Assembly: GCA_004376375.1 (NCBI GenBank)
Contig: SOJX01000009.1
Coordinates: 17,570 to 81,569 of the forward strand
DNA length: 64,000 nucleotides
Reading direction: 5' to 3'
Source of the DNA: Planctomycetota bacterium
GTDB taxonomy: Bacteria; Planctomycetota; E44-bin39
Under the pieces are notes generated by a model. That model saw only the letters and a list, made by a program, of their open reading frames with translations, had not been told where the DNA came from and ran no database searches. A program made the position numbers and the translations under genes. Below, in pieces: positions 8,862 to 47,802 of this stretch; the first letter of the stretch is position 1, and each line of letters opens with the position of its first letter.

Positions 8862-8870
8862 ATCACAATA

Positions 8871-18373: not shown

Positions 18374-19459
18374 TCAACTTATTTCCGTGAGCCATGCGTA
18401 TTCCTTAAGGAAGCGGACCTCCTCGTCAATCTCGTTTTCTCTAAGCCTATAGGAGAACAGGCATCCTGAAGACAAGATGGGGACTCCGACAACATTCCAT
18501 TTCCTCCTCACCCACATCGGAAGAGGTGAGAAGAAGTCGACTACCTCCGTGCCATTGGGCCCGGGCCGAACTCTGAAGATCTGGGGAGTTCCTTGCTCAT
18601 AGTCGATGGCTGCCTGTATTCTCCAGGCCTCGTCACATCCTCGCCAGGTATTGCTCTTCAGCGGAAGATCCACAAACCTGATGGGGTTACCGTCCTTGAC
18701 CTTAACATAACACCAGAGATCCGCCCCATAGGCTTGCGCACGACGGCCAACAAACCGCCCGGTATGGGTTGTCGATTCGACCCAGCGACCTCGGTAGTAT
18801 CGAACGGATCGTCCTGGGTCAAGCAGTACCAACCCTGGAACGTCTCCACCTACCGGTGCGGCATCCAGTAAGCGATTCATTCGCCCAAGATACTCGGCGG
18901 CGGCTTCCGCTTTCGGAGCTTTCAACCATGCGCTGCTCGACAGTTCAATCCAGCCCAACTCTCCCAATTGATCTGCGAACTTTGTTCCTGCGTTGGGTGG
19001 CAGTACTCGAATGTGGTTTATATACTCGACACATTCCACGACTTCGTCAGGGAGTAGAGATACGTCGTCGGGCAGGATCCCCAAGATGACAACCGCGCCA
19101 CTTTGACGTCGCACAAAAGCTGGTGGAGCGAGGTACAGGAGGGCTTTGCACCCGCTACTTTCCTCCTGGCTCGTGTCCGTCAGCTCGAGGAGGTCTCCAT
19201 GCCCGACAAGTGCTTCAAGCGTATCCTCGACCGTCCGTTGTAACTCGTCCAGGTCATCGACCAAGCTCCGAAGAGGTTCAACGACCGCATGGATGAGGGT
19301 ACGAGCAGAACACGGGCACAGGAACCCTGCGGCACGCCGGAGGCAACACGAAACTGCTTCCACGCTGCTGAGATCCAAAGCACTAGGATCGAGGCCCAAC
19401 GCCTCAACCGATGCCTGGTGAACCTCCGCTGTCGATAGAGCTTTCATTCCCATGCCCAC
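18374..19459 (-). CDS. hypothetical protein (third gene of the five-gene operon; DruD-like by position and size only)
   Basis: 361-aa ORF. Tight operon spacing: 16-nt overlap upstream and 34-nt gap downstream. No recognisable motif. Confidence 0.5.
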   Translation of the reverse strand: MGMGMKALSTAEVHQASVEALGLDPSALDLSSVEAVSCCLRRAAGFLCPCSARTLIHAVVEPLRSLVDDLDELQRTVEDTLEALVGHGDLLELTDTSQEESSGCKALLYLAPPAFVRRQSGAVVILGILPDDVSLLPDEVVECVEYINHIRVLPPNAGTKFADQLGELGWIELSSSAWLKAPKAEAAAEYLGRMNRLLDAAPVGGDVPGLVLLDPGRSVRYYRGRWVESTTHTGRFVGRRAQAYGADLWCYVKVKDGNPIRFVDLPLKSNTWRGCDEAWRIQAAIDYEQGTPQIFRVRPGPNGTEVVDFFSPLPMWVRRKWNVVGVPILSSGCLFSYRLRENEIDEEVRFLKEYAWLTEIS

Positions 19460-29353: not shown

Positions 29354-29602
29354 CTAAATTTCCGAGCCCGCCCCGTTACGGATAAATGAAATGATTCTTT
29401 TTACCTGTCTTATTGAAAGCCCTACTTCGCGGGCGATTTGTGCATCCGTCAGACCGCTTTGCTTTAACTGCATAATCCTCCGGTTCCTGTCTTCGTAGTA
29501 TTTCGGCTGCGTCTTCGGAACCCAGAGCATGCCTGTATGGAAATTCTGGACACGGCTCAACAAATCGGGCGGTAGAATGCTAGCGGCGTTCTTGTAACCC
29601 AT
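29354..29602 (-). CDS. Mor-family-like small transcription activator (HTH), paralog 2
   Basis: 82 aa. Central G-x-L-W/Y-V/I-P-K motif (HTGMLWVPK) and C-terminal HTH GLTDAQIAREVGLSIRQVKRII. RBS AGGAGG. Confidence 0.5.
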   Translation of the reverse strand: MGYKNAASILPPDLLSRVQNFHTGMLWVPKTQPKYYEDRNRRIMQLKQSGLTDAQIAREVGLSIRQVKRIISFIRNGAGSEI

Positions 29603-29627
29603 CGCGACCTCCTTCTATAAATTTGAC

Positions 29628-29861
29628 TCAAGTCTTTTGCGCCTGCCTGGCTTCGTGGAGTATCTGCTGAACCCTGCGAGCAGAGAGGTAAACGATTTCT
29701 GCGATTTGGGAAGGCTTCAGCCCTTGCTGGCTGAGTTTCATGATTTCCTTGTCGCGCTCCTTACCTTCAGCAGGCGGAATGTAAAGCAGGCCCACGTGGT
29801 ATTCCCGGACTCGCATTAATAATTCAGGTGGTAGAACAATTGCCGCATTTTTATAAGCCAT
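29628..29861 (-). CDS. Mor-family-like small transcription activator (HTH), paralog 1
   Basis: Start moved to MAYKNAA (aligned with the paralog MGYKNAA), with RBS GGAGG 6 nt upstream. HVGLLYIPP motif and HTH LKPSQIAEIVYLSARRVQQIL. The ORF track gives 29628..29894. Confidence 0.5.
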   Translation of the reverse strand: MAYKNAAIVLPPELLMRVREYHVGLLYIPPAEGKERDKEIMKLSQQGLKPSQIAEIVYLSARRVQQILHEARQAQKT

Positions 29862-29994
29862 AACGACCTCCTTCCAAAACAAAAGTCGAAGCATTTTTAC
29901 CGTGGAGGTCTCGTGGAATTCTCGTGTGGGTCCCGGCTTCTTTTGAAAGCGCAGGTAGTGAACGTTCTGGTCTCGATAGGTTCTCGTCGAAAAT

Positions 29995-30783
29995 CTATCC
30001 GTCGCAAGGACGTGGTTTCTTGTTGCGAACTTTCATGATGTTGGCCGAGCGGTCAATATTAGCGCTGACCTTGAAGCCTCGCTTCTTGGCCGCGCCTTTG
30101 AGTACACCGGTCACGGCTTGAATCATCTCGGTCGAAGCATTGATGTTTCGGGCAAGCTGCTGGATGTCGCGGGTTTCGTAAAACTCGCCGTCGTCGTGGA
30201 CACGCTTTAGTATTCCAGAGTCCTGGCAAAGGTCCAGCATCTCAGCCACGGCCAAGTGACATGTGAGGAAGTGAACCGCGTACTGCGTCTTTGTGAATCC
30301 TTGGCCGCGCCAGAGGTTACCATTGCCAAGCCGCCCGAGCATGATGTCAAAGGACTCGCATCCTTCACCCACGTCAACGGCAAGCAGTATGCCATTGCCC
30401 AATTTCTTTATCCTGTCAGCGCGCCGCTGTGAGACTTCTCCTGTCTTGATGCGCAAGCGATGGTAGCGCCGCCTGTCACGCGGCGAAAGCTTGCCAACAT
30501 TTCCTGTGCCGCCGATGCGCATGACAATCTCCATCAGCGCTTTGTCCGCTTTCGTTTGGCGGAAGTATGATAACATCATCGTCAGCCCCAGCATGTTCTC
30601 GAGGGCACGCTTCTCGCTTTGCCGCGCGAACCCTCTCTCCAGCCTGGCACGCTTGATTTCGACGATTTCCCCGACCGATTCCACGGGAAAATCCCCGAAT
30701 CGGCTTCTTAGCCATTCCAGTTTCTTCAGGAGCGCGGTCTTTGTGCCCCTGAACTCGAACGTGTAGAATATGCTCAGTCCCAT
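29995..30783 (-). CDS. hypothetical protein
   Basis: 262-aa ORF in the same orientation as, and upstream of, the Mor-like pair. No recognisable domain. Confidence 0.5.
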   Translation of the reverse strand: MGLSIFYTFEFRGTKTALLKKLEWLRSRFGDFPVESVGEIVEIKRARLERGFARQSEKRALENMLGLTMMLSYFRQTKADKALMEIVMRIGGTGNVGKLSPRDRRRYHRLRIKTGEVSQRRADRIKKLGNGILLAVDVGEGCESFDIMLGRLGNGNLWRGQGFTKTQYAVHFLTCHLAVAEMLDLCQDSGILKRVHDDGEFYETRDIQQLARNINASTEMIQAVTGVLKGAAKKRGFKVSANIDRSANIMKVRNKKPRPCDG

Positions 30784-30812
30784 TCCGCCTCCCTACGGTC
30801 ATCTCCATTAGC

Positions 30813-31259
30813 TTATTCGTCGAATTTCCAGATTCTCATGTGCTCGAAGCGCGGCGCAAGTGTCTCCATGCGCTTCTGGACTTCCCCGGCGCTACGGCAC
30901 TCGGTAAATGTCTGCGCAAGCGCAAGGCGGCCCTCTACAATGTTCGTCAGCTTTTTTTCTGCATAAACGTCATCGAGCAGGCGAGTATCGAACCGCTTCG
31001 GCTCCTCATCGCGGTCGAGAAACAGGAACTCCTCCAGCGCGTTCCGAAGGCCGAGCTTTATGGTCCAGTTCCCATCTGCACGGCGCAACGTCAGCACCGG
31101 ATTCACTATGCCGTCCTCGTAACGTTCCACTGTTTTTTCGACAACCTCGAATCCCATAGCCTGTACTCCGGCCTCAAACCGCTTTGCCAACTCCGGCAGC
31201 CAGCAGGTAAGAATGAGCATTGCACCGGTCGTTTCCTCGGAATTTCCGAATTTGAGCAT
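30813..31259 (-). CDS. hypothetical protein (start chosen at MLKFGN, translationally coupled to the upstream small ORF; the ORF track offers 31295)
   Basis: ATG lies 1 nt after the TAA of the 50-aa ORF. No RBS for the 31295 start. Confidence 0.45.
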   Translation of the reverse strand: MLKFGNSEETTGAMLILTCWLPELAKRFEAGVQAMGFEVVEKTVERYEDGIVNPVLTLRRADGNWTIKLGLRNALEEFLFLDRDEEPKRFDTRLLDDVYAEKKLTNIVEGRLALAQTFTECRSAGEVQKRMETLAPRFEHMRIWKFDE

Positions 31260-31260
31260 G

Positions 31261-31413
31261 TTAAACCTCGAGCATGTCCGCGACGAAGCGTACAACTTCG
31301 GGTCGGTCGCAGTACTCGCGCAGAAGCTCCACGACCTCGTTGACTAAATAATAGCCTTCTTCTATTCCCAACTCGTTGTTGGGTATGTACAAGGTGCCCG
31401 AAAACTCACTCAT
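31261..31413 (-). CDS. small 50-aa protein (below the ORF-track cutoff)
   Basis: Reverse-strand ORF MSEFSGTLYIPNNELGIEEGYYLVNEVVELLREYCDRPEVVRFVADMLEV. RBS AAAGGAGG 9 nt upstream. Acidic. Confidence 0.4.
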   Translation of the reverse strand: MSEFSGTLYIPNNELGIEEGYYLVNEVVELLREYCDRPEVVRFVADMLEV

Positions 31414-31725
31414 TGCCTCAACCTCCTTTGATATAACAGGTTACGCACATATGGGCATTATCCGACGACGAAGTCAAGATATTTACATCATTTGGGTTTT
31501 GGGTCGATCTAACTCGTTTTTCCGGATTTTAACGCTTAAAAACCTCCCAACGCATTCATCTTTGTCAAGTAATGCACTCGGCCTCGAAAAAACAAGCCAA
31601 AGCATTATCGATTATTCTATGCGCAGGCTATGACTCGCGAAATCCTCCGTTATTCACCGGCAAAACACTCTAACCAGTTTTGCATAAACCGGTTACGACG
31701 ATTCAAAGCGGCGTCCGTCATAATT

Positions 31726-32469
31726 TCAGTGTAGCCAAGAAGTTATGCTTATGTCGGGCCAGCGCAAACAAAGGTGTTGGCTTTTCGGCAGGTACGACAT
31801 AACGGGCACACGAAAACGGCTTCGACGTAACTGTTCCATATGCATACATTTACGCCTCTCCGACCCCATGGGTTTTGGCGCGGCGGTCGGGCCGTGCGCA
31901 TAACCGCCGTTACTGAGCTGGTGCGTTTCGAGCATCCCTATCCCGCTTTCGAGCTCGCTCTTGTAGCCTCCCGTATGGAGGGCCATCTCGGAAAGGAACC
32001 ACGAGCCGATTGAAAAACCCCAGTTGTCGAAATCGTTCCCGCCGCCGCCGCGGTCGGTGATGTGTGCGGCCACGTAATCGGCAGCGTCTTTCAAAGCACC
32101 GGACTTGGGATCGTCGCCGGCCGCGAGCATGGCGAGCCCGCAATAACTCGCCGATACAATCGGTCCCGCCGGCGGCGGATATCCGCTGTTCTTCCAGTTG
32201 CTGCGGATGTAATCCAGTCCTTTGCTCGATGCCCCGGACCAGCTCGCGGGCTTGTTGGGTGAATTGGAGATTTTCCCGTTTATAGTCCCCGGTCCGGTAC
32301 CGGTGCCGGTCCCGGTTCCCGAGCCTGTTCCTCCACCGCCGCCACCGCCGGAACGGGAAGATTTATGCCCGTCAGAGCAGGACGGGATTAACGTCAAACC
32401 GATAGCCGCTATCAATATTATTATGAAGTGTGTTATGCTTACGGCGTTGAATGAATGTTTGTGTTTCAT
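31726..32469 (-). CDS. secreted lipoprotein with Gly/Thr-rich linker; possibly 3'-truncated
   Basis: Start set at MKHKHSF, with RBS GGGAG upstream. Signal peptide plus LIPSC. Linker (G)7TGSGTGTGTGTGPGT. Repeat-like GGYAHG / NWGFS segments. The last 45 or so codons look non-protein-like and run into a lower-GC region. Confidence 0.45.
   Translation of the reverse strand: MKHKHSFNAVSITHFIIILIAAIGLTLIPSCSDGHKSSRSGGGGGGGTGSGTGTGTGTGPGTINGKISNSPNKPASWSGASSKGLDYIRSNWKNSGYPPPAGPIVSASYCGLAMLAAGDDPKSGALKDAADYVAAHITDRGGGGNDFDNWGFSIGSWFLSEMALHTGGYKSELESGIGMLETHQLSNGGYAHGPTAAPKPMGSERRKCMHMEQLRRSRFRVPVMSYLPKSQHLCLRWPDISITSWLH
32285..32345. repeat. GGN/ACN-type hexanucleotide low-complexity coding repeat (Gly-Thr linker)
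   Basis: ccggtaccggtgccggtcccggttcc... encodes the TGSGTGTGTG linker. Confidence 0.7.
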
Positions 32470-32529
32470 TCCCTTTTCTCCCTTCCGTGCTTGCGTATGT
32501 GTCATGGACAGCCTCGTTACACTCTGATG

Positions 32530-35028
32530 TTATTTCTTCTTTGACAGGACCACCGTGAGCGCGACAACCTTCGTAGTTGCAACGCAGTCCTCGTTAGAAA
32601 GAATGACAAACCAGTCATCGTTGGATGGGATAATGAAATCCCCCGACTTTGAAGATATGTTATGAGAGATTTCATGGGCATCGAACGAGGCGCCGCCGGC
32701 GTAGGCCATGAAGTTTGCGGAATCGCAGATGAAGAAATCCGCGTGCGCGTTACTGCGGACGTAGCTGAAAGTTTTGGCGTGCAGTGGCTCCGGAACGCTG
32801 TCGACGGGGCAGGTTCCGTGCATCATTTCCGACGGCACCTCAACCGCGAAATCGAGTTTGTAGTTGTCGAGAGGACTTGGCAGCTGACCCGCCGCGCCCG
32901 GCTTCGGCACGGGTATGCTCCCGCTGAGGGTCGCCGAGCGGGATACCGTCCCCTTGTCTTCGACTTTTACCGATTCGGTCGTGCCGTCTCCAACGATGCT
33001 GTTGATTTTGATTCCGAAACTTTTCGCTGATGCAAGCGCAACGTTGCATTTGCCGGAAGTGTCGGTATAGCCGATTCCGGCGTACTGCGGCCTCGGGTGC
33101 CCCGCGCTGGAAATCTTCAGCTGCACGCCGTCGACCGGGTTGCCGTCCGCGTCCGTGACGGTCATGTCGAGCCTTTTGACGCTGGTGTATCTTTCGGTGA
33201 TGGTCTCCGAATACCCGTCGCCGCGCCACGACAGGACGGCCGAGATCGGCATCCACTCCCAGCCCCAGTCGTCGTAAGCGCGGGGGTCGTCAATCATAAA
33301 ACCGTTCCACTCCGACTTCGAGGGCTCCCACTGGACCCATCTTCTATCGTAGAACTCGTTCCACTTGTGGTTGTTCGCGTGACTGCCCGTCGCGGCCCCC
33401 GGGATAAGCGCGGTTCTTGTCGCCGCGGCCGTGACAATTGCATGCGGCGTGCAGGAGCCGCTGTGCGTGTGATGTATCGAAAGAGGCTGAGTGGGATCAG
33501 GTTTGCCGCCGCCGCCAACGAAACTGATGTTTATCCATTCGGCAACCGCGGCGATAGCGTCGTTATCGTCACTGTTTTTCTTGCACTTCCATACGCTTTG
33601 ACATCCGATAAGCACGTCTTTCAGCGGGAAATAAGTAACCCTGTCCGGCGGATCGCAGAGATTGAAGAAAAAGTCGCGCCAGAAATAGCCGTCGATATAC
33701 TGCGGCTCTTCCACCATGACGACGGGATGCACAATGTAGTAGTAGTATATATCTCTCGGAAGCTCTACCTGTTTGCGGACTCCCCCCTCTTCGACCCAGT
33801 ACCTTGTGGTGGAGTAGTAATTCGGATCGCTGCCCGAAGTTCCGTAATCGATAACATCGACATAATCAAGCACGTCATCGGCCGAGTAGATATGCTCGGC
33901 ATTCTCCCTGATAATCGCGAGGTCCATTACGGCGAGGTCTTCATGCGCGATGTGGGCCACGCAGAAAACTATCTCGTCGAGGTATGGGTCGGACGCGTCC
34001 AGTATCAGCCGGGCGCACGAATCCTGAATGCTGCTGCCCAGGAATGAGAAATTCTCCGCCAGCTCGTGTGCAAGCCATTTTGGCGCTTTCTCAACCGCGT
34101 CTTTCGCAAGCGAAGTCAGGTTCTCCTGCGGGCGCAGGACCTCGAGGGCCGAACTGCTGCTGTTGAAACGGACGCAGACGCGCTCGCCGGCCGGTATCCT
34201 TACTTCCAGGCTTACCGAGTCCAGTTTCTCCCACGCGGGGTCGGTTACGGTTATCGAAAACTCCTCGCCCGCGGTCTTTTGCGGCGAGCTTGAATCCTCG
34301 ACCCGGACCGCGAAATCGAAAATACCGGCCGTGCCGGGCGTACCGGAGATTTCGCCGGTCGACGGGCTGAGGCTGAGGCCGTCGGGAAGCGAGCCGCTAA
34401 GGATCGACCATGCATAAGGAGTCGTACCTCCTGCCGCACTTAGCGTTCCGCTGTACGCGACTCCAAGTACGGCGTCCGGGAGCGATTCGGTCTCGAGCGT
34501 CAGCGCGCTTCCGGGCTCCTCAATAATTATGGAAAACTCCTTCGTCGCCTCCTGCAACGGCGCACTGCCGTCAGTAACTTTTACGGTGAAATCGAAACTA
34601 CCCGCTGCGGTGGGGGTACCTGAAATTCTTCCTGTCGATGGTGTAAGGTTAAGACCGCTCGGCAGAAAGCCGCTTGAGATGGACCATGTGAAGGGAGAAG
34701 TACCCCCTGCCGCAGTGAGAATTCTGCTGTATGGAATTCCAACCGTACCGCCCCAGAGCGAATCAGTCGCTATCCAGAGCGGATTCGCACCTGTTCCGGT
34801 TCCGGATCCTGTGCCGCTGCCCGTTCCTGTGCCTGTTCCCGTGCCGGTGCCTGTTCCCGTTCCTGTTCCTGTTCCCGTGCCGGGGCCCGTCCCTGTGCCA
34901 GGCCCGGTTCCCGTACCGGGTGGGTTCTGGCTGCTGCCTGATTTCTTGTTACTGCCGCACCCCGGCAGGCAAAATGTCAAGCCGAATACGGTTACGATTA
35001 CGATGAGAATAAAATAGACCCGTTTCAT
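32530..35028 (-). CDS. transglutaminase-like lipoprotein with two putative Ig-like repeats and a long (GT)n linker
   Basis: 832 aa. Signal peptide with lipobox LPGC. Linker of about 45 residues of GTG/PGT. Two repeats P(F/Y)(T/A)WSI(S/L)SG(F/S)LP(S/D)GL(N/S)L(T/S)PSTG(R/E)ISGTP. Transglutaminase core GSCTPHAIVTAAATRTALIPGAATGSHANNHKWNEFYDRRW (Cys...His...Asp). ATGA overlap with the STAS gene. Confidence 0.7.
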   Translation of the reverse strand: MKRVYFILIVIVTVFGLTFCLPGCGSNKKSGSSQNPPGTGTGPGTGTGPGTGTGTGTGTGTGTGTGTGTGSGTGSGTGTGANPLWIATDSLWGGTVGIPYSRILTAAGGTSPFTWSISSGFLPSGLNLTPSTGRISGTPTAAGSFDFTVKVTDGSAPLQEATKEFSIIIEEPGSALTLETESLPDAVLGVAYSGTLSAAGGTTPYAWSILSGSLPDGLSLSPSTGEISGTPGTAGIFDFAVRVEDSSSPQKTAGEEFSITVTDPAWEKLDSVSLEVRIPAGERVCVRFNSSSSALEVLRPQENLTSLAKDAVEKAPKWLAHELAENFSFLGSSIQDSCARLILDASDPYLDEIVFCVAHIAHEDLAVMDLAIIRENAEHIYSADDVLDYVDVIDYGTSGSDPNYYSTTRYWVEEGGVRKQVELPRDIYYYYIVHPVVMVEEPQYIDGYFWRDFFFNLCDPPDRVTYFPLKDVLIGCQSVWKCKKNSDDNDAIAAVAEWINISFVGGGGKPDPTQPLSIHHTHSGSCTPHAIVTAAATRTALIPGAATGSHANNHKWNEFYDRRWVQWEPSKSEWNGFMIDDPRAYDDWGWEWMPISAVLSWRGDGYSETITERYTSVKRLDMTVTDADGNPVDGVQLKISSAGHPRPQYAGIGYTDTSGKCNVALASAKSFGIKINSIVGDGTTESVKVEDKGTVSRSATLSGSIPVPKPGAAGQLPSPLDNYKLDFAVEVPSEMMHGTCPVDSVPEPLHAKTFSYVRSNAHADFFICDSANFMAYAGGASFDAHEISHNISSKSGDFIIPSNDDWFVILSNEDCVATTKVVALTVVLSKKK
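34786..34925. repeat. long hexanucleotide low-complexity coding repeat encoding the (GT)n linker
   Basis: About 23 tandem degenerate copies of ccnGTn; the opposite frame reads PVPVPVPV. Confidence 0.75.
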
Positions 35029-35387
35029 GCTGTATTCTCCTTTTGTGATTCTGGACGACGATAACTATGTGCATTTTCGGAAAATTTGCCCAGCGCAGCA
35101 GAGGCGAGCCACTCGACGCCGAGGCTCCGGACAGGTGGAAAGATATCGACGCTCAGGTTTCCGTTTTGACACTTAACCCAGTCGAGAACCGTAACGCCGA
35201 TAGAGTCAATCGATGTTATTTTACGAAGGTCGAGCATGATTTCCCGACTCTGGAATTCTACCGCGGACTGCAGAAGCTCCAGAATCCTCCTGGCAGTATG
35301 GCCGGTGAACTTGCCTGCAACCTGCAACCGTAACTTTCCGTTTTCGTAACAGAATAGGGTAAATGCGACTTTCATGATAATTTCCAT
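35025..35387 (-). CDS. STAS-domain protein (anti-sigma-factor antagonist, SpoIIAA-like)
   Basis: 120 aa. LDLRKITSIDSIGVTVLDWVKC fits the STAS signature. Directly downstream of a sigma-54 promoter. Confidence 0.6.
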   Translation of the reverse strand: MEIIMKVAFTLFCYENGKLRLQVAGKFTGHTARRILELLQSAVEFQSREIMLDLRKITSIDSIGVTVLDWVKCQNGNLSVDIFPPVRSLGVEWLASAALGKFSENAHSYRRPESQKENTA

Positions 35388-35427
35388 ATTTTAGAGCAAA
35401 AATTATTGGAATCGCTACTATTGATTT

Positions 35428-35443
35428 AGCAAGATTTGAGCCA
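35428..35443 (-). promoter_or_regulatory. sigma-54 (-24/-12) promoter TGGCTC-N5-TTGCT driving the STAS / transglutaminase-lipoprotein operon
   Basis: Minus-strand read TGGCTCAAATCTTGCT against the consensus TGGCACGnnnnTTGCW: two mismatches, exact GG-GC spacing. About 40 nt upstream of the STAS start codon. Confidence 0.55.
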
Positions 35444-35540
35444 AATGGTTTTTAGATGGCCGAGATTCGTATAACTAGTGTGTGTTCAATGTGTTAGGTG
35501 GTGTGCAAGTGATAGTTCATGGAGATTGCCAGGAAGGGGA

Positions 35541-35588
35541 GTGTCAACTGTATTGACACATTACGGTCTGTGTCAATGTAGTTTACAC
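35541..35588. promoter_or_regulatory. two tandem palindromic candidate enhancer (UAS) sites GTGTCAA-N5-TTGACAC and GTGTCAA-N5-TTTACAC
   Basis: Perfect 7-bp IR at 35541-35559 and a one-mismatch copy at 35570-35588. Centres 29 bp apart. 100-150 bp upstream of the sigma-54 promoter and directly beside the sigma-54 activator gene. Confidence 0.45.
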
Positions 35589-38500
35589 TATCTTGGGCGT
35601 TGGATTCCCCACTCTTTTCTCTTCTTGAAAATCTGCTGTCGGCTGACACCGAGCAGTTTTGCCAGTTGGGTTTCATTGTGATTATGCTGGTGAGCGAGAA
35701 TGAATTCTTTCATATAATTTTCAAGTGAAAGTTTACGGCTGATTATGCTTTCCGGTTCAGGCTGATGTTCCCGGCTGCTCATTACTTTCACAATGTCACC
35801 GGTAGTAATGCGGTTGCCGGCCATTACGAACGCCTGCTGGAGTATGTTTCGCAGTTGTCGCACATTGCCGGGATAATTGTAGCCGGACATTTTCGCAAGC
35901 GCCTCCGATTCAAGCGGTTTTTCAGGCACGTCCAGATCACCGGCAAGTTCATTGAGAATGTGCTTTACAAGAAGCGGGATATCTTCGCGCCGCTCGCGAA
36001 GAGGCGGCAGCTCGATGCGGACAACGTTTAATCTGTAGAAAAGATCTTCACGGAACGCGCCCTGCTCCACAAGCTTTTCGAGCGGCATGTTGGTCGAGCA
36101 CACCAGGCGGATGTCAATGGGAATCGGCATCGCGGTGCCTATCCGCCTGACCTCCCGTTCTTCGATGACGCGGAGAAGCTTAACCTGCATTCCGAGCGGC
36201 ATGGAGGCTATTTCGTCCAGGAACAGAGTACCGCCGTCCGCCGACTCAATAAGTCCTGTTTTATCGGAGCCCGCGCCCGTGAAGGCGCCTTTAACGTGCC
36301 CGAAAAGCTCGCCTTCAAGCAGCGATTCCGTCATGGCGCCGCAATTGATCGAAACGAACGGCCCTTCCTTCCGGCTGCTGTTGTAGTGGAGCGCTTTTGC
36401 GACAAGCTCCTTCCCCGTCCCCGTTTCGCCGTAGATGTAGGCGGTCAGGTCGGTATCGGTAACGGAATCGAGGAGGCTGAAGAGTTCGCGCATCGGTTTC
36501 GACTGCCCTACGATGCTGGTGTAGGCGTACCGTGTCCGCACCTCTTTCTGAAGGGAGCTAAGCCTTGTCCGCATCTTTTCCTGCTCGACGGCGTTGGAGA
36601 TAATAGGCGCGATACGCTCGGCGAGTGCTTCGACGAAATGGAGATCGGCTTCGGTGAAACTGCGGGCGAGCGACGTGGTATCGAGATAGACCACCCCCAT
36701 CGTCCGGCCTTCGCTTTTAATCGGCACGCAGAGCACCGAGCAGAGGCTGAGGTCTACCACGCTTTTCGCGTCGCGAAGCGATTCGTCCATGTTAACGTTG
36801 GCGACAAGCCTTGACTGGCCGCTATTGATGACTTCTCCAACCATGGTGTGGCTTGTCTGGTATTCGGGCGAAGTGATTTCCCTGTCGCGAATGTTACGCA
36901 CCGACAGGTGTTTGAGGCCGGCACCCTCATCGACAAGGATGATAAAACCGCGCTCGGCCTGGATAGTGTCAAGCACCATAGCGAGTGCGAGGTCAAGCAG
37001 CTTTTCAACGTCAAGCTCGGTCGCGGCGAGGCGCGCGATCATCTCGAGGAGCGCCATCTCCCGCCGCGCTACATGACTATCGTATACGCCGTGGATATCC
37101 AGGACCTGTTGATCGAGTGTAAAATCCTCTTCGGGGAACTCGGTTATTTTTTCTTTTCCAGGCGGTCCTTTCCGGAAGGGGTCAACGTCATCCAACGGGC
37201 TGAAGAACGGAGATTCCCTCAGCTGCTGCCTGTCGTACCCTTCGGGCAGCACATCGGCAATGAGTTTATAGGCATTTTCCGCTTCATTGAAATGCCCGGC
37301 CGCGAGCTCGAGATTATCCTGAGTGGAGGCGGCGAGCGCGGCGGTGAGCGCGGCCTCGAAGACGAGTGCGATGTTATCGGTCCGGTATGCGGTTTTCAGG
37401 GCCTCGGCTGCGATTTCCCGGGCCTTTCCAGCCTTGCCGATTCTCAGGCTGCATCGCGCTTTCAGGATAGTGGTTTCGATTCCGGCAGCCATGCTGAGTT
37501 TTTCATTTTCAAGCCGTGCAAGGATTTTTTGCGCTGCCGGGATTCTTCCGGTTGTTATGAGTACCCCGGCCCCGGCCAGTTCGATGCCCCACCCGACCTG
37601 TCCGGTGATTTTCAATTCCTGCGCCTGTTCTATCAGACGGCGGGCGCGTTTGATATCTCCCGTGATCATGGCGTGCCTCGCGGAGAGGGCCAGCGCTTCG
37701 CCGAGCCTTGCAGGGCTCTGCGGCCCGGCAAGCTCCCGGGATTCGGACAGGTCCCGCTCGGCGGCTTCGAAATCACCGCAGAGGAACGCGAGCGCTTCCG
37801 CCCTGAGATTCAGGACCGTTGTTTCCAGCGGCGTTATGCCGGCTTTACGGGCAATCTGAAGGGCCTCTTCGAAGTATGCGAGCGCGTCGGCGGTCCTTCC
37901 GAGTACGGTGCACACCGTTCCGAGAGAGATGGGGCAATGCCGCTTGAGAGTAGAGCTTGCTGTTTTCCCCGCCACTTCACTGGCCTGCTCGAATGAGGAA
38001 AGGGCTTCCCTTGTTCGTCCCGAGGCGAGGTGGACGTCACCTATGTTTATCATCACGGCGCCGATACTTACTTCATCACCCGAAATCTCGAAGAACCGCT
38101 TGGCCGCGGTGTAGGCGTCGAGTGCTTCGTCGTACTGCCCGAAATCCTTGAGCACGTTGCCGATATTTCCCTGGGTGTATGCAACACCCATGAGGTTGCC
38201 TCTTTTTTCATAAGCATCGAGGGCGATATAGTAATGCACAAGCGCTTTTTCCGGTTTCCCTTTTTCCAGATCGATACCGGCCAGCAGGACGTGCATGCGC
38301 TCGAAATGGTCTTTCGCGGATTTCCGCCGCAGTATCCGGTTGGCGCGCTTCACGGCATCGGCATATTTTCCGCGCCCGTAATCAGAACTTGCGAGATGAC
38401 TGTCTATGGTATTAATTTTTTCCTTGTCTTTGAGAGACTTGAAGATGTCCCTTGCCTCGGACAATAACTTTCGTGCTTTCTCAGGCTCGCCTTTGTGCCC

Positions 38501-40921
38501 CGCGACGCGCCCCAGATGAATAAGCAACTCTCCCTTCAGGGGTTTTGAGTTTTTCACCCCCGGTCTGTCCTGCGCTTCCTGAAGGAAGAGTTCGGCTTCG
38601 TCCGCTTTTCCCGACCGCAGGCGAAGAGTAGTATGAAACCACGCAACGGTGGCGGCGTACTCCGGATATTTCCACAGCTCGTCGCTTGAAGCGGCGGTAA
38701 TGCAGTCAAAGACTCTCTCGAGCCTCGCGCGGCGCCAGTAACACTTGGCCAACCAGTCAAGCGCCTCGAACCATCCTTCCGTTCGGCCGGGCAGGCGTTT
38801 CTTGAGCGCTTCGAAAAGCCGGACAGCGGACGATATCACTCCGGTCACCGCTGCATGCTTCGCCCCATCCCAGAGCAGTGGCAGCAGTTCGTCTTCACCG
38901 ACGCCGGCTTTCTCCGCGTGTATCGCGCGCTCTATGAGCTCGGTATTTTTCTTTTTCAGATAAGAATATATCTGTCCGTGCATTGCGCGGCACTGCTCAC
39001 GAGGTATAATACGCAGGACAACTTCACCCAGACGACCGCTCGCGAATGCGTAGTTACCTTCTTCATCGGCCCAGAGCAGTCCACGCGAAAGCAGATGCTT
39101 AACCGCGGCGGCGCATGCGTCGGGCGGTATCGCGGACGCTTCCTGCAGCAGGTCGAATTCGGCGGGGCGTTCGACGCATGCGAGCGCGTCAACGACGACA
39201 CGCTCATCTTCGACCAGCGATTTGATTCTGCGCTGGAGCGCTTCTTCACCTTTTGCCGGCGGTTTCAGGCCGGCAAATGCCGCGGTTGTACGCCATTTCC
39301 CCGCCTCAAAGAAAAGGAGCCCGGTCTCAAAAAGCTGCTGAACGGTCTGCTCTATGATAAGCGGGTTCCCCCCGGCCGCATCAAGCACGGTAGACAGCAC
39401 ATTCGCGGGCAATTCGGAGCCGCCCAGCATGGCGGAAAGCAGTCCTGCCGCGGCTTCCCTGGTAAGCGGAGACAGCGAAACCTGCCCGGCGATTCCCTGT
39501 GCGCTCGAGCGGTCCATATACCCGATCACGGTTTTGGCGGTTTCCACCTCGGTATTGCACGCGCACAGAACAAGCAGAGGCACGTGCTTACCTTCCTGCA
39601 ATCCGAGCCAGAGCACCCGTGCGAGATGTTCGAGAAAGGAAAGGGTGTCTTCGTCAGCATTTTCCAGGTCGTCAATCGAAATAACCAGCGGCCGCAGGGC
39701 CGCTGTTTCCATGAGCAGGAGCGCAATATCGTGCATGACTCTGCCGTGCTTTACCATATCCGGGTCCCGCTCTTCCCCGGCAAGCATGCCCAGAGTTTCC
39801 TCGAACTCATCCAGAGTTTCTTTCGGAAGTGCCTGGATAATATTGCCGATAACTTCCGCAAAGGGACCGTAAGGCCGACGGCGCGAGGCCGAGCATCTGC
39901 ATTTTATGAGCAGGTTGCCTTTCAGTTGGGCAAAGTAGCCTGCTTCGCGCAGAAGGCGGCTTTTTCCGATTCCGGTCTCACCGGTAATAAACCATAGCGA
40001 AGGTTTGCCCGGACCCTCCCTGAGTGAATCCATCAGGGCCCTGAAATGGTCCAGCTCTTCCTCTCTTCCGATAAAACCGCCGCCGAGAAGATATGCAAGC
40101 GCTGTCTCGACCGTCTCCTCTTCCAGTGAAATATCCATGGCCTGGGAGAGCGCGCGATTGACCTCGTTGGCCGTATAATATCTCAAGCCGGGCTCGCGCT
40201 CGAGGAGGCGCAGGACAATACGCTCCAGCTCGACCGGGACATCTATTTTGAATTTACGCGGCGGCTCGGGCTCCGTCGCGGCCTGCAATCTGAGCACCTC
40301 GAGAATTGAATCGTCCTCGTACGGGCGCTTGCCCGCAATGGCTTCATAAAAGACGACGCCCAGCGAATACAGATCGGAGCGCGGATCGCCGAGCTCTCCG
40401 CGGACGACTTCAGGTGCGGCATAGCCTATCGTCCCGCGCATCGAGCCCGATATCGGCGTTTCGGTAGTCGCAAGGCCGAAGTCGATCAGCCTCGCGACCC
40501 GGTTCGTATCGACTATGATGTTGCCGGGCTTGACATCGTAATGAATTATTCCGCGGGAATGTATATGCTGAAGTGCGCGAAAGACCTGAGCGAAAAGACG
40601 GGACCCGTCTGCGAAGTCGAGACCTTTGCACATCTCAACGATATTACTTCCTTCGATGTACTCGGAAGTGTAGAACCACAGGCCGGATTTCTCGTCAAGG
40701 CCGAAATCGTAAACCCGCGCGATATTCGGGTGACGGATTTTGGTGAGGGTCGAAAACTCGTGCCGCATGAGCTCGAGGTGCCGCGTGCCCGGCGTCTCGA
40801 GCAGCTTCAGCGCAAGAAGTCTTTTGTCTTCAAGCCTGTCCCTTACCAGATAAACCTTCCCCGCAGCTCCCTTGCCGAGAAGCTTTTCAACTTTATAACG
40901 GTTTGCGACAACTTTTGGCAA
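35588..40921 (-). CDS. Multidomain regulator: Ser/Thr protein kinase / STAND-type P-loop NTPase / TPR repeats / GAF / sigma-54-interaction AAA+ / Fis-type HTH
   Basis: 1777 aa. Kinase motifs GKGAAGKVY, LALKLL, HYDVKPGNI, DFGLA, GTIGYAAPE. P-loop GETGIGKSRLL. Long TPR-like region. Sigma-54 AAA+ motifs GETGTGKELVAKALH, ELFGHVKGAFTGA, GGTLFLDEI. C-terminal HTH LAKLLGVSRQQIFKKRKEWGI. Confidence 0.85.
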   Translation of the reverse strand: MPKVVANRYKVEKLLGKGAAGKVYLVRDRLEDKRLLALKLLETPGTRHLELMRHEFSTLTKIRHPNIARVYDFGLDEKSGLWFYTSEYIEGSNIVEMCKGLDFADGSRLFAQVFRALQHIHSRGIIHYDVKPGNIIVDTNRVARLIDFGLATTETPISGSMRGTIGYAAPEVVRGELGDPRSDLYSLGVVFYEAIAGKRPYEDDSILEVLRLQAATEPEPPRKFKIDVPVELERIVLRLLEREPGLRYYTANEVNRALSQAMDISLEEETVETALAYLLGGGFIGREEELDHFRALMDSLREGPGKPSLWFITGETGIGKSRLLREAGYFAQLKGNLLIKCRCSASRRRPYGPFAEVIGNIIQALPKETLDEFEETLGMLAGEERDPDMVKHGRVMHDIALLLMETAALRPLVISIDDLENADEDTLSFLEHLARVLWLGLQEGKHVPLLVLCACNTEVETAKTVIGYMDRSSAQGIAGQVSLSPLTREAAAGLLSAMLGGSELPANVLSTVLDAAGGNPLIIEQTVQQLFETGLLFFEAGKWRTTAAFAGLKPPAKGEEALQRRIKSLVEDERVVVDALACVERPAEFDLLQEASAIPPDACAAAVKHLLSRGLLWADEEGNYAFASGRLGEVVLRIIPREQCRAMHGQIYSYLKKKNTELIERAIHAEKAGVGEDELLPLLWDGAKHAAVTGVISSAVRLFEALKKRLPGRTEGWFEALDWLAKCYWRRARLERVFDCITAASSDELWKYPEYAATVAWFHTTLRLRSGKADEAELFLQEAQDRPGVKNSKPLKGELLIHLGRVAGHKGEPEKARKLLSEARDIFKSLKDKEKINTIDSHLASSDYGRGKYADAVKRANRILRRKSAKDHFERMHVLLAGIDLEKGKPEKALVHYYIALDAYEKRGNLMGVAYTQGNIGNVLKDFGQYDEALDAYTAAKRFFEISGDEVSIGAVMINIGDVHLASGRTREALSSFEQASEVAGKTASSTLKRHCPISLGTVCTVLGRTADALAYFEEALQIARKAGITPLETTVLNLRAEALAFLCGDFEAAERDLSESRELAGPQSPARLGEALALSARHAMITGDIKRARRLIEQAQELKITGQVGWGIELAGAGVLITTGRIPAAQKILARLENEKLSMAAGIETTILKARCSLRIGKAGKAREIAAEALKTAYRTDNIALVFEAALTAALAASTQDNLELAAGHFNEAENAYKLIADVLPEGYDRQQLRESPFFSPLDDVDPFRKGPPGKEKITEFPEEDFTLDQQVLDIHGVYDSHVARREMALLEMIARLAATELDVEKLLDLALAMVLDTIQAERGFIILVDEGAGLKHLSVRNIRDREITSPEYQTSHTMVGEVINSGQSRLVANVNMDESLRDAKSVVDLSLCSVLCVPIKSEGRTMGVVYLDTTSLARSFTEADLHFVEALAERIAPIISNAVEQEKMRTRLSSLQKEVRTRYAYTSIVGQSKPMRELFSLLDSVTDTDLTAYIYGETGTGKELVAKALHYNSSRKEGPFVSINCGAMTESLLEGELFGHVKGAFTGAGSDKTGLIESADGGTLFLDEIASMPLGMQVKLLRVIEEREVRRIGTAMPIPIDIRLVCSTNMPLEKLVEQGAFREDLFYRLNVVRIELPPLRERREDIPLLVKHILNELAGDLDVPEKPLESEALAKMSGYNYPGNVRQLRNILQQAFVMAGNRITTGDIVKVMSSREHQPEPESIISRKLSLENYMKEFILAHQHNHNETQLAKLLGVSRQQIFKKRKEWGIQRPR

Positions 40922-41242
40922 AGTAACCTCACAGGCTCCAAAGCAAAGTACATTCTATCATCACCAGATTCAAGCCAAAAAATTCTCGCGTACTGGGGGG
41001 GGTCTTTCTTTCCGCGTAGATGTGTTTCGGGAAAAACTATTTCTGATAACTATAAACCATGTTGTGTGATAACAAACGTAACATCCCGCCTGCATTATCG
41101 CCTTGTTACCCCGGCCATCGCAGGGGTTCTCTCTTGCGTCACCCTTGCGCACACAGGTTTCTCTGAACTGCTTCGGATTGCTTTGAACTGCATATTCGAG
41201 GAGGGTGGGTGAAAAATAAAAGGAACAGCCTGTTACAGAGCA

Positions 41243-41328
41243 CTGCATAAACAGGTTGACATCCGGCCCCACCGAACCCCGGGAAAATGGAAGGGCGTTT
41301 TTAACCGCGTGTCAACCTGTTTATGCAG
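41243..41328. repeat. perfect 19-bp inverted repeat pair (CTGCATAAACAGGTTGACA ... TGTCAACCTGTTTATGCAG) separated by 48 bp
   Basis: Seen directly, about 320-400 bp upstream of the sigma-54 activator start. Contains the GTCAAC/TGTTTAT core shared with the 35.5-kb UAS sites. Confidence 0.6.
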
Positions 41329-41457
41329 GATTCTTTAGTTGCCGTGTCTATGCGTTTTCTTTTCCCTTCGAGCCGTATCTCCCATTTTCATTTGAATTTC
41401 CCCAATCCTCGCATATAATTCATCTATAAGGAAGTAAACCTAGAAATTATCCTTACT

Positions 41458-41520
41458 ATGTCCCCGAAATACAATGTCCCCGAAATACACATGTCCCCGA
41501 AATACACCCCGGAATACACC
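41458..41520. repeat. tandem direct repeat, about 3.7 copies of a 16-17-bp unit ATGTCCCCGAAATACA(C)
   Basis: Seen directly. Sits exactly where homology between the two GT-like paralog loci ends. Confidence 0.75.
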
Positions 41521-41710
41521 GTTCTTCAAAGGTATTTCTCAATTTTTCTCATTATTTTTTTGAAATGTTTTTCGAACCGGAGATGCTCTTCGAATGTTTT
41601 ATAAGCCATTTCAGAATATTGCCCGTAATTGCTTTCGATTTTCCGTAAAGCACTTCCTGTTTCGGATGCGGTCTCGACACAAACGCCACATCCCGTTTTT
41701 TGCACAAACT
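41519..41710. repeat. about 190-bp segment roughly 93-95% identical to 46065..46260 (3' ends of paralogous genes, same orientation)
   Basis: Direct comparison of the two loci: near-identity through the last 60 or so codons, then decay to about 70%. Confidence 0.7.
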
Positions 41711-42824
41711 CTCCCAGCGTCGTTTCGTTGTTAACAATCACAGGCAGCCCTGACCTCAGGGCATAAGCGACTTTGCCGGAAGACAAGCCGATTACCTTGA
41801 TATTACTCCATCCACTGCGTCTTGAGCGGACAGGCTTATAAAAAGCTATAATCGCATCCGCGCTTGAAATAAGCTGATCAAATAATTTTCTGGAAGCCGG
41901 TTTTTCAGAAAAGATTACTCTTGAATTTCCTTCAGCAATATCTTTAAGATATTCCCATCGATATTTGTTTTCCTCTCCCATTTTATTAGCATGAAAGTGT
42001 GTATGGATTACCAGGACCCAATTGGCGGGCCATTTCCTCGAAGCCGGAATGATATCCTCAAGCATCGTCCATTCGCTTAAACCCCCGGCATGAAGCAGGA
42101 TTTTTTTTCTTTTGTCAATGTCAAGCATTTCGTGCCAGAAATTGAATCTTTTCTTCATCAAAGGCCCGCCAGGCGAGTTGGGGAGGTATTGGAGCTTATG
42201 GATGGGGATTAAATTATCCTGCGCAAACAGATCACCTCTTTCCTTGTCCTGTATAATTACAAAACGCGCTCTCCTGCTGTAGGTTTTTTCGATATTTTTA
42301 AATAGCTTCTCTCTCGGCTCCGTGATTTCTCCAGACAGCAGCAATTCCAGGGAAATATATATAAAGGGTATGCCAAGAATGCGATACAGCGCCGAAGACC
42401 TGTATGCTATATCTTTCATTGGCAAAATTCCTTCAGGTTCAATAACGATAAATAAAGAATATGGCTTTTTCTTCCAAAGCCTATACAAGCACATTTGCTC
42501 AGAATTTCTGCTGATAAAATCCTGGATTTTTATTAGCCACCGTTTGAGCTTGTTGGAAAATGGTATTGCAGGTTCCTTATTTGTTTTTGTCAGCTTTTTC
42601 TTATCATTATTCTGTCGAATTTCAAAATATCGCACCTTATTTGCATCGAAATCGGGAGATACTGCAAAAGGCGTTTTAATTGAATATATGTCAACAGAAT
42701 ATCCTTCTTTTGCCAGATAATCAATCATGCAATGAAGCGTAGGTACCGAATCAAGGTAAGCATGTGGACATATAATACATATTTGTCTTATACTCAACGG
42801 TATATCCTCAGCAAATATTTTCAA
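41526..42824 (-). CDS. putative GT-B-fold glycosyltransferase-like protein, paralog A
   Basis: 432 aa. C-terminal GLSSGKVAYALRSGLPVIVNNETTLGEFV resembles GT1/GT4 nucleotide-sugar binding regions. C-terminal 60 aa nearly identical to the protein at 46072..47343. Confidence 0.45.
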   Translation of the reverse strand: MKIFAEDIPLSIRQICIICPHAYLDSVPTLHCMIDYLAKEGYSVDIYSIKTPFAVSPDFDANKVRYFEIRQNNDKKKLTKTNKEPAIPFSNKLKRWLIKIQDFISRNSEQMCLYRLWKKKPYSLFIVIEPEGILPMKDIAYRSSALYRILGIPFIYISLELLLSGEITEPREKLFKNIEKTYSRRARFVIIQDKERGDLFAQDNLIPIHKLQYLPNSPGGPLMKKRFNFWHEMLDIDKRKKILLHAGGLSEWTMLEDIIPASRKWPANWVLVIHTHFHANKMGEENKYRWEYLKDIAEGNSRVIFSEKPASRKLFDQLISSADAIIAFYKPVRSRRSGWSNIKVIGLSSGKVAYALRSGLPVIVNNETTLGEFVQKTGCGVCVETASETGSALRKIESNYGQYSEMAYKTFEEHLRFEKHFKKIMRKIEKYL

Positions 42825-43178
42825 CCGTTTTTAAAATCTAGCAATATATAATGAAATTGTCAATAGATATTCCCCGGAGGCATTTGCGCTGTAGGGTTTG
42901 GCGGCCGTGGCGAGCGGCAGGAGTTTACCGCTGGAGGCGCCAAGACCTCTGTAAAAACCACGAATTCATGTGCCGGGCATCTCAATCCGCTGATTGTACC
43001 GTCAATTGCCTCCGTAGATGAACGAATTGAGAAATGTCCTTGCCAAACGCGGGTTGGAAAGTTAAAATCATACACGCCAGAAGATTACAGGAAGCTGCTG
43101 TTTGCCATGATTGATGAAGCAAAGGAATTGGTGCTGCATAAGTAGAAGGGCAATTCCTCGGAACACGGAGAGCCAGGC

Positions 43179-45483: not shown

Positions 45484-46071
45484 AATGGCAGATCAGAATG
45501 CCCGTTGCCGTTATTTATTATGCACTCTTGGCAGGCAAATTGGGAGCGAAGTACGAAACGATTACCGAAGTTGAAGAGCACGCCGCGGACACATACGTCG
45601 CATAGGTTCCGCCACATAACGATAAAAAAAGGAGCGGCCGCGCTCTCACGGCTGGGCCTGTTTCCCGGCCGGCAGCGAAGGGTTTGTTGGCAAGTTGGAG
45701 AAGCTTTTCAGCACAAGACTCCGTCCCGAATGCGCGCGTACGGGCCGGTCCTAGAGACTGGCGGTTATGCGGTTTGAAAGAATCGCATCTTTTGCCGCGA
45801 TTATGTATGGGCGGCGGGCACGCGAATTATACAATGCACGGGCCGATTGAGGAGTAATTCGGTCACGGTGCGAATGGGTGTCTGTATCGTCAGTAAGCTT
45901 CCACCCTTTTTTGCTTCTGGCCATCTTTCACCCCCTCCTGACAGCCAGTTAAGCAAATCTAACTCCTGATTAAAAGCCAATTTATAAAAATTCTTAGGTT
46001 ATGAAATGGTTTCTAGTATTCAAAAGGTGATCTATTAAAAAATGACTGGGCTCTCTAACCGTTATTGTTCT

Positions 46072-47343: not shown

Positions 47344-47667
47344 TCAAAAAGATCCATAGCTACCCGCCGGCATGTACAACGGAGATCTGAATGAGTTACT
47401 CCTAATCCAGCAAATACTGTTTTATTATACTTGAAGTCAGGATATTTGTCCAGCTAGTGAAACGGATTACCCCCGAAGATCGTGAAACCATTGAAACCAT
47501 GAGACCTCTCGAGGTCAACCGTCAGGAGTTCAGTGGGGCGCTTGTTATTAAACTGGCCCGAGGAATCTCCCTGGCATCAGTTATTTATTCTGCTCTATGC
47601 TGTTTTACCGCGTAGTCAAATATAATCGACAAATAGAACGTAGTTGCATAAATTATATAATAATCTG

Positions 47668-47699
47668 GACGATAAGATTCCAAGACGATAAGATTCCAA
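47668..47699. repeat. perfect 16-bp tandem duplication GACGATAAGATTCCAA x2 in a divergent AT-rich promoter region
   Basis: Seen directly between the divergently transcribed genes at 47343 and 47803. Confidence 0.7.
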
Positions 47700-47802
47700 T
47701 ATCAATAGCCTCTAGATGCAGATAATCGGGAATGACTTAATAAACGCGCTTACTTCCACAGTATGGAAAAGTTGTACGTTATCCTGAAGAGAGATATTTC
47801 TG

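Follow-up and report, generated by a model that had tools for sequence, protein, structure and literature searches.

A probable decayed prophage fragment beside a truncated lipoprotein gene in a Planctomycetota genome

Introduction

Serine integrases commonly target open reading frames (ORFs), and grounded or decayed prophages with an integrase of this kind include SPbeta in spsM and A118 in comK. Decayed mobile elements typically accumulate in defence islands. Here, we analysed a 64-kb stretch of DNA (the window) from a contig of a Planctomycetota metagenome-assembled genome (MAG; locus tags E3J72_00960 to _00980), in which a cassette of five ORFs lies next to a truncated lipoprotein gene. 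We conclude, with a probability of about 0.85, that the cassette, at 29354-31775, is a stranded and decayed fragment of a temperate tailed phage of Planctomycetota.

The locus resembles SPbeta and A118 in that phage-derived genes abut a host gene broken in the middle of its reading frame, and in that its relatives carry an integrase of the large-serine-recombinase type. It differs from them in that the window has no definable att sites, the integrase gene appears to have been deleted, and only one half of the host gene is left. In addition, large serine integrases have a zinc-ribbon/coiled-coil half, whereas the integrase of the relatives is without it.

Two of the five ORFs encode small helix-turn-helix (HTH) proteins, here called HTH-A and HTH-B, which can be compared with the CD3324 family and with the Mor and C activators of phage Mu. 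Both share with CD3324_fam an N-terminal Y-x-N-A...LP-x-x-L motif, a G-x-L-(Y/W)-(I/V)-P strand, and a C-terminal HTH, but they score 36-40 bits as compared to a curated cut-off of 65, and the CD3324 family itself has no tested function. A possible likeness to Mor and C lies in the C-terminal half, where a G-x-x-(V/L)-(Y/W)-(I/V)-P strand is followed by R-(D/N)-x-x-I and the HTH, and in the position of the relatives' HTH gene directly upstream of late structural genes in phages. However, Mor and C are 129-140 amino acids (aa) long as compared to 77-82 aa in the window, their N-terminal dimerisation domain (~60 aa) is absent from the window proteins, and they are assigned to PHROG 532, a profile that neither window protein matches.

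Results

Cassette layout and collinearity with phage contigs

An ORF check of the window confirmed the five ORFs of the preliminary description, all on the minus strand and of 82, 77, 262, 148, and 50 aa. These ORFs, the sequences that adjoin them, and a stub of a large-terminase gene are as follows.

29354..29602, minus strand: HTH-B, 82 aa, a small HTH protein resembling CD3324 and the C-terminal part of Mor
29628..29861, minus strand: HTH-A, 77 aa from MAYKNAA, a paralogue of HTH-B
29995..30783, minus strand: orf262, a member of a large uncharacterised family
30784..30812, minus strand: spacer of 29 nucleotides (nt) between orf148 and orf262, part of a putative 33-nt deletion scar
30813..31259, minus strand: orf148, a conserved partner gene of the module
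31261..31413, minus strand: orf50, encoding a small acidic protein
31414..31775, minus strand: non-coding, phage-derived leader in front of orf50 that includes a conserved block of 21 nt (31716-31736)
31776..31864, minus strand: junction zone, with host lipoprotein DNA on one side and phage-derived DNA on the other, a candidate attL
31865..32505, minus strand: 5' fragment of the lipoprotein gene, ~214 codons, DUF6288-type; the ORF crosses the junction into phage-derived DNA and stops at 31726
24704..24841, plus strand (opposite to the cassette): large-terminase stub, the last 45 codons and the stop

Shine-Dalgarno sites stand in front of all five ORFs. The ribosome-binding stretch GAAGGAGGTCG precedes the start of both HTH-A and HTH-B, the sites of orf50 and orf262 are AAAGGAGG and GGGAGG, and the phage homologues of the small HTH genes have a similar AGGAGGT core upstream. 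The gap from orf50 to orf148 is 1 nt, and that from orf148 to orf262 is 29 nt. HTH-A has an alternative upstream start that would give 88 aa, which its homologues do not use. All cassette ORFs are real genes, given that length-conserved homologues are found elsewhere.

Relatives were found via orf262 homologues in a protein collection, and their contigs (L numbers) were then compared with the window. The JGI contig L002 carries, in this order, a TerS-like HTH protein, the large terminase (TerL), a non-coding leader of ~440 nt, two genes of 50 and 155 aa, a serine recombinase of 263 aa, a 262-aa gene, a 78-aa HTH gene, the portal, a Mu-F-like protein, and a methyltransferase, with a Prim-Pol upstream. 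Four cassette genes and the leader are collinear with L002. The aa identities are 72% for orf50 (with the 50-aa gene), 82% for orf148 (with the 155-aa gene), 70% for orf262, and 79-84% for HTH-A (with the 78-aa gene, located between orf262 and the portal). At the DNA level, window 30817-31426 corresponds to L002 4593-5201 and window 29643-30783 to L002 6001-7128, with 75-80% identity. The GC content of the cassette is 0.529, close to the 0.535 of the L002 module, as compared to 0.57-0.59 in the host flanks.

The leader is recognisable as well. Its 21-nt block GGCTACACTNAAATTATGACG is found exactly in the window (31716-31736), in L002 (4452-4472), and in L009 (6720-6740), with a chance expectation of 0.01; local alignment pairs window 31702-31775 with L002 4411-4485, and a promoter-proximal block at 31413-31478 aligns weakly with L002 4526-4604. 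A metagenome scan with the 21-nt motif found nothing. Rfam gave no structured RNA in the window, L002, L009, L015, or L005, and none in the L002 leader at E <= 1.

The order of recombinase, orf262, single HTH gene, portal, and Mu-F is also present in L005/L006 and in L009, an IMG/VR viral contig, while L015, a Planctomycetota MAG contig, has the same arrangement without the HTH gene. The portal and Mu-F genes thus lie directly downstream of the module in L005, L009, and L015, and the large terminase lies upstream of it in L002 and L021. When all L002 proteins were compared with the window by tblastn, the sole matches were the cassette and the 45-codon TerL stub; the virion and replication genes of L002 (portal, Mu-F, Prim-Pol, methyltransferase) had no match in the 64 kb, and no portal or other virion gene lies within ~29 kb of the cassette. 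The stub, 4.5 kb from the cassette, corresponds to residues 442-485 of the 485-residue L002 TerL (64% identity, E = 2e-12) and ends at the native stop, its translation reading YARFNTAKNEHHHADRMWALALAVHAVG...SASIV-stop as compared to YARYDTEKNETHHADKMWALALALHAAG...DASIV-stop in L002.

Because the homology to phage contigs is collinear and the virion genes are absent, the cassette is phage-derived and is best seen as a piece of a phage genome, not as a complete prophage or an operon of the host, which bears out the earlier suggestion of a prophage remnant. The leader, orf50, orf148, a short serine integrase, orf262, and an HTH gene are the integration and regulation module of the phage.

A comparison of L002 with L009 showed 90% identical DNA from the recombinase through the methyltransferase, with TerS/TerL at this position only in L002. 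The mosaic breakpoint (L002 1867-4153 against L009 6419/6420) falls within ~10 nt of the terminase stop codon, which is the boundary at which the window stub ends. In L021, a HEPN/nucleotidyltransferase pair and a glutaredoxin gene (804-1803) fill the variable slot between the terminase and the orf148-recombinase-orf262 unit. This arrangement suggests that the slot is a cargo hotspot in this phage group.

Truncation of the lipoprotein gene and its junction with phage DNA

The predicted lipoprotein ORF spans 31726-32505 and encodes 247 aa counted from the second Met. Apart from itself, its only homologues are P0002 (390 aa, 45% identical) and P0003 (385 aa, Pfam DUF6288, PF19805). The alignment with both ends at residue ~214 (nt ~31864) and covers 74% of the query; P0002 and P0003 extend ~175 residues past this breakpoint, and the tail of the window ORF is unrelated sequence. 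The full length of the DUF6288-type protein, 385-390 aa, is therefore not reached in the window, where homology is limited to residues 1-214. Alignment with full-length homologues thus supports the earlier claim that the gene is truncated, and at the predicted point. The further suggestion, that an insertion truncated the gene, is not supported in the form of a simple insertion that split it, since tblastn found the missing 3' half nowhere in the 64-kb window. Its absence therefore implies a deletion or rearrangement after the event that broke the gene.

Lipoprotein homology ends at 31864 and phage homology is detectable by local alignment from 31775 on, leaving a gap of less than 90 nt. The GC content falls from 0.59 to 0.43-0.45 across the breakpoint; this drop alone would be no evidence because GC is patchy (0.36-0.63) throughout the window. 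An attB/attP-like similarity across the 31864 junction was considered and dropped, as it did not exceed that of shuffled controls. The window lacks the phage "P-arm" sequence, and a GTDB scan for an empty site, made with the adjacent 832-aa lipoprotein, found nothing.

The neighbourhood of the truncated gene is loosely conserved. At 32530-40921 on the minus strand, the window encodes this 832-aa He_PIG/transglutaminase-like lipoprotein, a STAS-domain protein, and a 1777-aa Ser/Thr-kinase/TPR/GAF/sigma-54-activator protein, and in L001 a full-length homologue of the truncated lipoprotein is flanked by counterparts of the STAS-domain protein and the 1777-aa protein.

Loss of the serine recombinase gene

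A serine recombinase of 260-311 aa, with the Pfam domains Resolvase and Recombinase, is encoded immediately upstream of the orf262 homologue in eight independent loci (L002, L005, L009, L015, L016, L021, L023, and L025). In L002 and L009, its gene and the start of orf262 share 1 nt, and an 8-14-nt spacer containing a ribosome-binding site (RBS) separates the two genes in the other six. A 56-aa remnant is left in L003/L004, and no recombinase is present in L022 or in the window.

Where L002 has 799 nt encoding both domains (5202-6000), the window has 33 nt (30784-30816), made up of the 29-nt spacer and the last four bases of orf148 (30813-30816). Just ahead of the start of orf262, the last 15 nt (TAG GGAGGCGGA ATG) are similar to the stop codon of the recombinase and the spacer with its RBS in L016 and L003. 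The retention of this remnant in front of orf262 points to loss of the recombinase gene by deletion and disfavours its ancestral absence.

The partner recombinase matches the N-terminal domain of the TP901-1 integrase (E = 3.6e-19), SPbeta YokA over residues 12-254 of 545, and PHROG 95 ("integrase") over profile positions 83-352 of 651. Because these matches cover only the N-terminal half of large serine integrases, we take the partner recombinase to be without the zinc-ribbon/coiled-coil half.

The small HTH proteins

HTH-A and HTH-B are 44% identical (phmmer E = 6e-18) and have in common the motif M-x-Y-K-N-A-A...LPP-x-LL...G-x-L-(Y/W)-(I/V)-P followed by a C-terminal HTH, in agreement with their earlier description as adjacent paralogues. 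Both align over their full length with the NCBIfam model CD3324_fam (NF040785; HTH-B, E = 3.4e-10, 39.9 bits; HTH-A, E = 5.6e-9, 36.0 bits), residues 3-71 and 3-68 of the two proteins pairing with positions 1-82 of 82, and all five family members examined, namely HTH-A, HTH-B, and three phage homologues, match the model. A search of the literature for "CD3324" gave no relevant paper in a bacterial context, and a search for HTH-B homologues returned only HTH-B itself.

The preliminary description had called these proteins Mor-like activators and had named the Pfam Mor model (PF08765) as the check. HTH-B reached 12.8 bits (E = 0.12) as compared to the gathering cut-off of 24.9, HTH-A had no match, and HTH-B was the only one of the five members to match at E <= 1; the other Pfam matches were to generic HTH families (HTH_23, Sigma70_r4, GerE), all sub-threshold. 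On the other hand, PHROG 836, "late transcriptional activator", matched HTH-B (8.6e-9) and HTH-A (1.2e-4), and Mu Mor and C match this profile over the same C-terminal region (positions 65-118). With hhalign, the proteins aligned in register with residues 65-118 of Mu Mor, pairing G-x-L-W-V-P and the HTH with GGGQVYIP and the HTH of Mor (E = 0.017, but with a probability of 2.7%), and with residues 74-121 of Mu C (E = 0.091). A sequence-profile search of the PDB brought up LuxR/GerE, sigma region 4, and resolvase HTHs, with no Mor-named chain among the 60 best of 66 matches at E <= 10. The resemblance to Mor may accordingly apply to the C-terminal half, and it fails for the Pfam model and the absent N-terminal half. 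Judged by their sequences, the two proteins appear to be distant CD3324-like relatives below the family cut-off, and their C-terminal half plausibly shares ancestry with the DNA-binding domain of Mor and C.

Each related phage that has the gene (L002, L005, L009) carries one HTH copy, directly upstream of the portal operon. While HTH-A resembles the copy of L002, HTH-B is closest to the L005 type, with 54% identity to the one HTH gene that precedes the portal in that phage. A local or recent tandem duplication is not supported, A and B each resembling the single copy of a different phage; the pair would most simply represent two diverged alleles juxtaposed by recombination between two phages.

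A 20-nt element, CTGCCCTGCNGCNATAAGGG, lies ~40-70 nt upstream of the portal start in L002 (7249-7268) and L005 (2002-2021) and is conserved between them despite their divergence elsewhere. It could be a late promoter, or the site at which the small HTH protein acts as an activator. The element is absent from the window, so the presumed target of the HTH regulators would be gone.

orf262, orf148, and orf50

The protein collection holds 20 homologues of orf262 of 209-271 aa, 16 of them of 260-271 aa. An exhaustive profile search of clusters at 50% identity gave at least 957 representatives at E <= 1e-3, with 451 at E <= 1e-10. Residues ~125-255, including TKTQYA-x-HF, form a conserved core, and a central helical insertion is variable. 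No match to orf262 was found in Pfam, NCBIfam, PHROGs, or PADLOC, nor in INPHARED by tblastn, nor in the PDB by sequence-profile search at E <= 10. An AlphaFold2 model built with 19 homologues has a predicted local distance difference test score (pLDDT) of 87.9 and a predicted template-modelling score of 0.80; Foldseek found nothing below E = 0.07 for it in PDB or BFVD. Among ten distant family members there was only one fusion, to DUF2958, and such members occur in phage early regions and in unrelated chromosomal contexts, with neighbours that have no common theme.

In the eight loci where the two genes are tightly linked, the recombinase ends exactly at the point from which the zinc-ribbon/coiled-coil DNA-binding half of a large serine integrase would follow. 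In these loci, the recombinase is 260-311 aa and orf262 is 219-264 aa; combined, the two approach the typical length of a large serine integrase. The orf262 of the relatives thus occupies the place of the zinc-ribbon/coiled-coil half of an integrase without sharing its fold. That orf262 is itself the missing zinc-ribbon domain was rejected at the fold level: no serine integrase was among the 50 best Foldseek matches and none of these reached E < 0.15, with several full-length serine-integrase structures (SPbeta YokA, phiC31) present in the PDB sequence copy searched. We tentatively raise the idea, which we consider less probable than not by a wide measure, that orf262 is a separately encoded second integrase subunit of previously unseen fold that serves att-site recognition or directionality control, as part of a two-component serine integrase. 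On that reading, the orf262 of the window could be an orphaned subunit that was kept, along with orf148, once the catalytic subunit had been lost.

Besides its L002 counterpart, orf148 has a homologue in L003 (39% identical) and others in L015, L021, and L022. It matches no family in Pfam, NCBIfam, PHROGs, or PADLOC, and its single-sequence AlphaFold2 model (pLDDT 51) is too poor for a structure search. Homologues of orf50 are found in L015 and L016, and L009 has a remnant of 20 codons. Across L002, L003, L015, L016, L021, and L022, orf148 and orf50 recur with the unit, and neither has detectable relatives of known function.

The surrounding defence island

Over its first 24 kb, the window is a dense defence island that contains the type I restriction gene HsdR, Shango, and type I Druantia. 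The main features of this region, and those between the terminase stub and the cassette, are as follows.

269-3334, plus strand: HsdR (type I restriction)
5192-11078, plus strand: Shango SngA, SngB, and SngC, low GC (0.40-0.45)
11519-12775: DruK-like PD-(D/E)XK nuclease
12781-18339, minus strand: DruE (type I Druantia)
18374-19459, minus strand: DruD (type I Druantia)
19444-22374, minus strand: 976-aa gene in the DruB/C position
22368-23561, minus strand: DruA (type I Druantia)
within 24870-28421, minus strand: 464-aa protein with an HSDR_N_2/NucS-like nuclease region (phrog_30092, 2e-8)
within 24870-28421, minus strand: 216-aa multi-pass membrane protein
within 24870-28421, minus strand: 487-aa protein with a weak SLATT_4-like C-terminus of two transmembrane (TM) segments (NCBIfam E = 0.0034; PADLOC "Effector 2TM" E = 0.0012)

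The last three genes form a low-GC (0.425) trio which, together with a TPR lipoprotein gene, separates the stub from the cassette. The 464-aa and 487-aa proteins have no relatives in IMG/VR, and the trio may be an uncharacterised abortive-infection or defence trio. The cassette proteins themselves gave no such signal: in PADLOC-DB v2, orf50, orf148, orf262, and HTH-B had no match and HTH-A had one spurious match (E = 0.023), which speaks against the earlier proposal that the cassette is a defence module.

At 23998-24558 (minus strand), the window encodes a protein of 186 aa whose N-terminus is rich in Lys and Ala and resembles histone H1. It shares 53% identity with the product of L003 8521-9087, a gene ~1.7 kb downstream of the L003 orf262 homologue whose relative order and orientation are the same; the gene may belong to the element, or it may be a conserved gene of the host beside a shared integration hotspot. 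The longer plus-strand ORF that overlaps it (23758-24732) is probably spurious. On the other side of the cassette, low-GC patches (0.36-0.43) at 41000-43000 and 46000-48000 hold minus-strand ORFs of 432 and 423 aa, the former without a Pfam match at E <= 0.001. These patches may be further foreign insertions.

Discussion

The history that we propose for the prophage fragment begins with a phage that would have integrated into, or recombined at, the lipoprotein gene, possibly via its serine integrase with attP in the leader, in which case nt 31776-31864 would be attL. The integrase gene would later have been excised almost precisely, and the phage body from portal to terminase, as well as the 3' half of the lipoprotein gene, would have been lost by deletion or rearrangement. 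A second, related phage may have contributed HTH-B, and perhaps the terminase stub, by recombination, and the low-GC trio would have been acquired. Neither att sites nor an empty site were found, and the order given for these events is tentative. In the intact phage, the HTH protein most likely acted as a transcription factor of the Mor/C-like late-activator type on the downstream portal/structural operon, and orf262 was most likely a functional partner of the zinc-ribbon-less integrase. In the window, the cassette is probably inert and at most co-opted, HTH and orf262 lacking their partner or target.

Several observations weigh against this history. The similarity of the junction zone (31776-31864) to the phage leader scores 25 as compared to a shuffled mean of 23, and no direct or inverted repeat or att site flanks 24.3-32.2 kb. 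An empty-site comparison lacks a close host relative, the best lipoprotein homologue other than itself being only 45% identical. Gene position and weak homology are the sole basis of the roles given to HTH and orf262. The strand of the terminase stub does not fit a prophage that was simply integrated and then deleted, so that one or more inversions, or a second phage, are needed to account for it. A simple inversion, with the stub once contiguous with the leader, was considered; the similar leader lengths (451 vs 441 nt) proved to be an indel coincidence, and the inversion is kept only as a possibility. Finally, all five ORFs are intact, and orf148 and orf262 are also kept without an integrase in L003 and L022, so that intactness could reflect selection instead of neutral decay.

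This last point is the strength of an explanation that we consider unlikely, in which the cassette is a domesticated functional module whose HTH pair regulates orf50, orf148, and orf262 or host genes, with orf148 and orf262 conferring a benefit such as superinfection exclusion. It would fit the good ribosome-binding sites of the five intact ORFs, the three recombinase-less loci (the window, L003, and L022) with intact orf148 and orf262, and the location inside a defence island. However, no cassette protein matches PADLOC, the intactness of orf262 elsewhere is an ascertainment effect in that the loci were found through predicted proteins, and the family is otherwise scattered over phage early regions and unrelated chromosomal contexts. 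That the cassette is a native, vertically inherited host operon beside a naturally short lipoprotein gene is hardly credible: only the intactness of the ORFs speaks for it, whereas the lipoprotein homologues are ~175 aa longer and the tail of the window ORF is unrelated to them, the closest relatives of every cassette gene are in phage contigs, and the GC of the cassette differs from that of its flanks.

We also give little credence to the idea that the unit of leader, orf50, orf148, serine recombinase, and orf262, with or without HTH, is a small mobile element, driven by its own recombinase, that inserts into phages between terminase and portal and into bacterial genes. The window would then record a direct insertion into the lipoprotein gene with later loss of the recombinase, and no whole prophage would ever have been present. 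The unit does occur in varied contexts, with a portal downstream in L002, L005, L009, and L015 and none in L021, L023, L025, L003, or L022; the post-terminase region is mosaic, L002 and L009 parting at the terminase stop; and the lipoprotein breakpoint is within 90 nt of the leader. These points are set against the lack of terminal repeats or a target duplication, the nearby terminase stub, from which it follows that the phage DNA formerly at this site went beyond the unit, the 3' half of the lipoprotein gene, which is missing and not merely displaced, and the origin of HTH-B in a different phage lineage than the rest of the cassette.

A decayed prophage fragment is an ordinary kind of genomic relic. 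Ordinary decay of a prophage bordering a defence island explains the local anomaly, with its GC drop, truncated lipoprotein gene, and orphan regulators, and the window cassette need not be read as a novelty in defence or regulation. The comparison with its relatives revealed a recurrent two-gene unit in phages and elements of Planctomycetota, in which an integrase without the zinc-ribbon/coiled-coil half is followed by a protein of ~260 aa. The orf262 family is large and has neither annotation nor a recognisable fold, and such novelty as there may be lies in these relatives, less in the window. If the recombinase and orf262 act together, they would represent a new serine-integrase architecture, which would be of practical interest for genome engineering.

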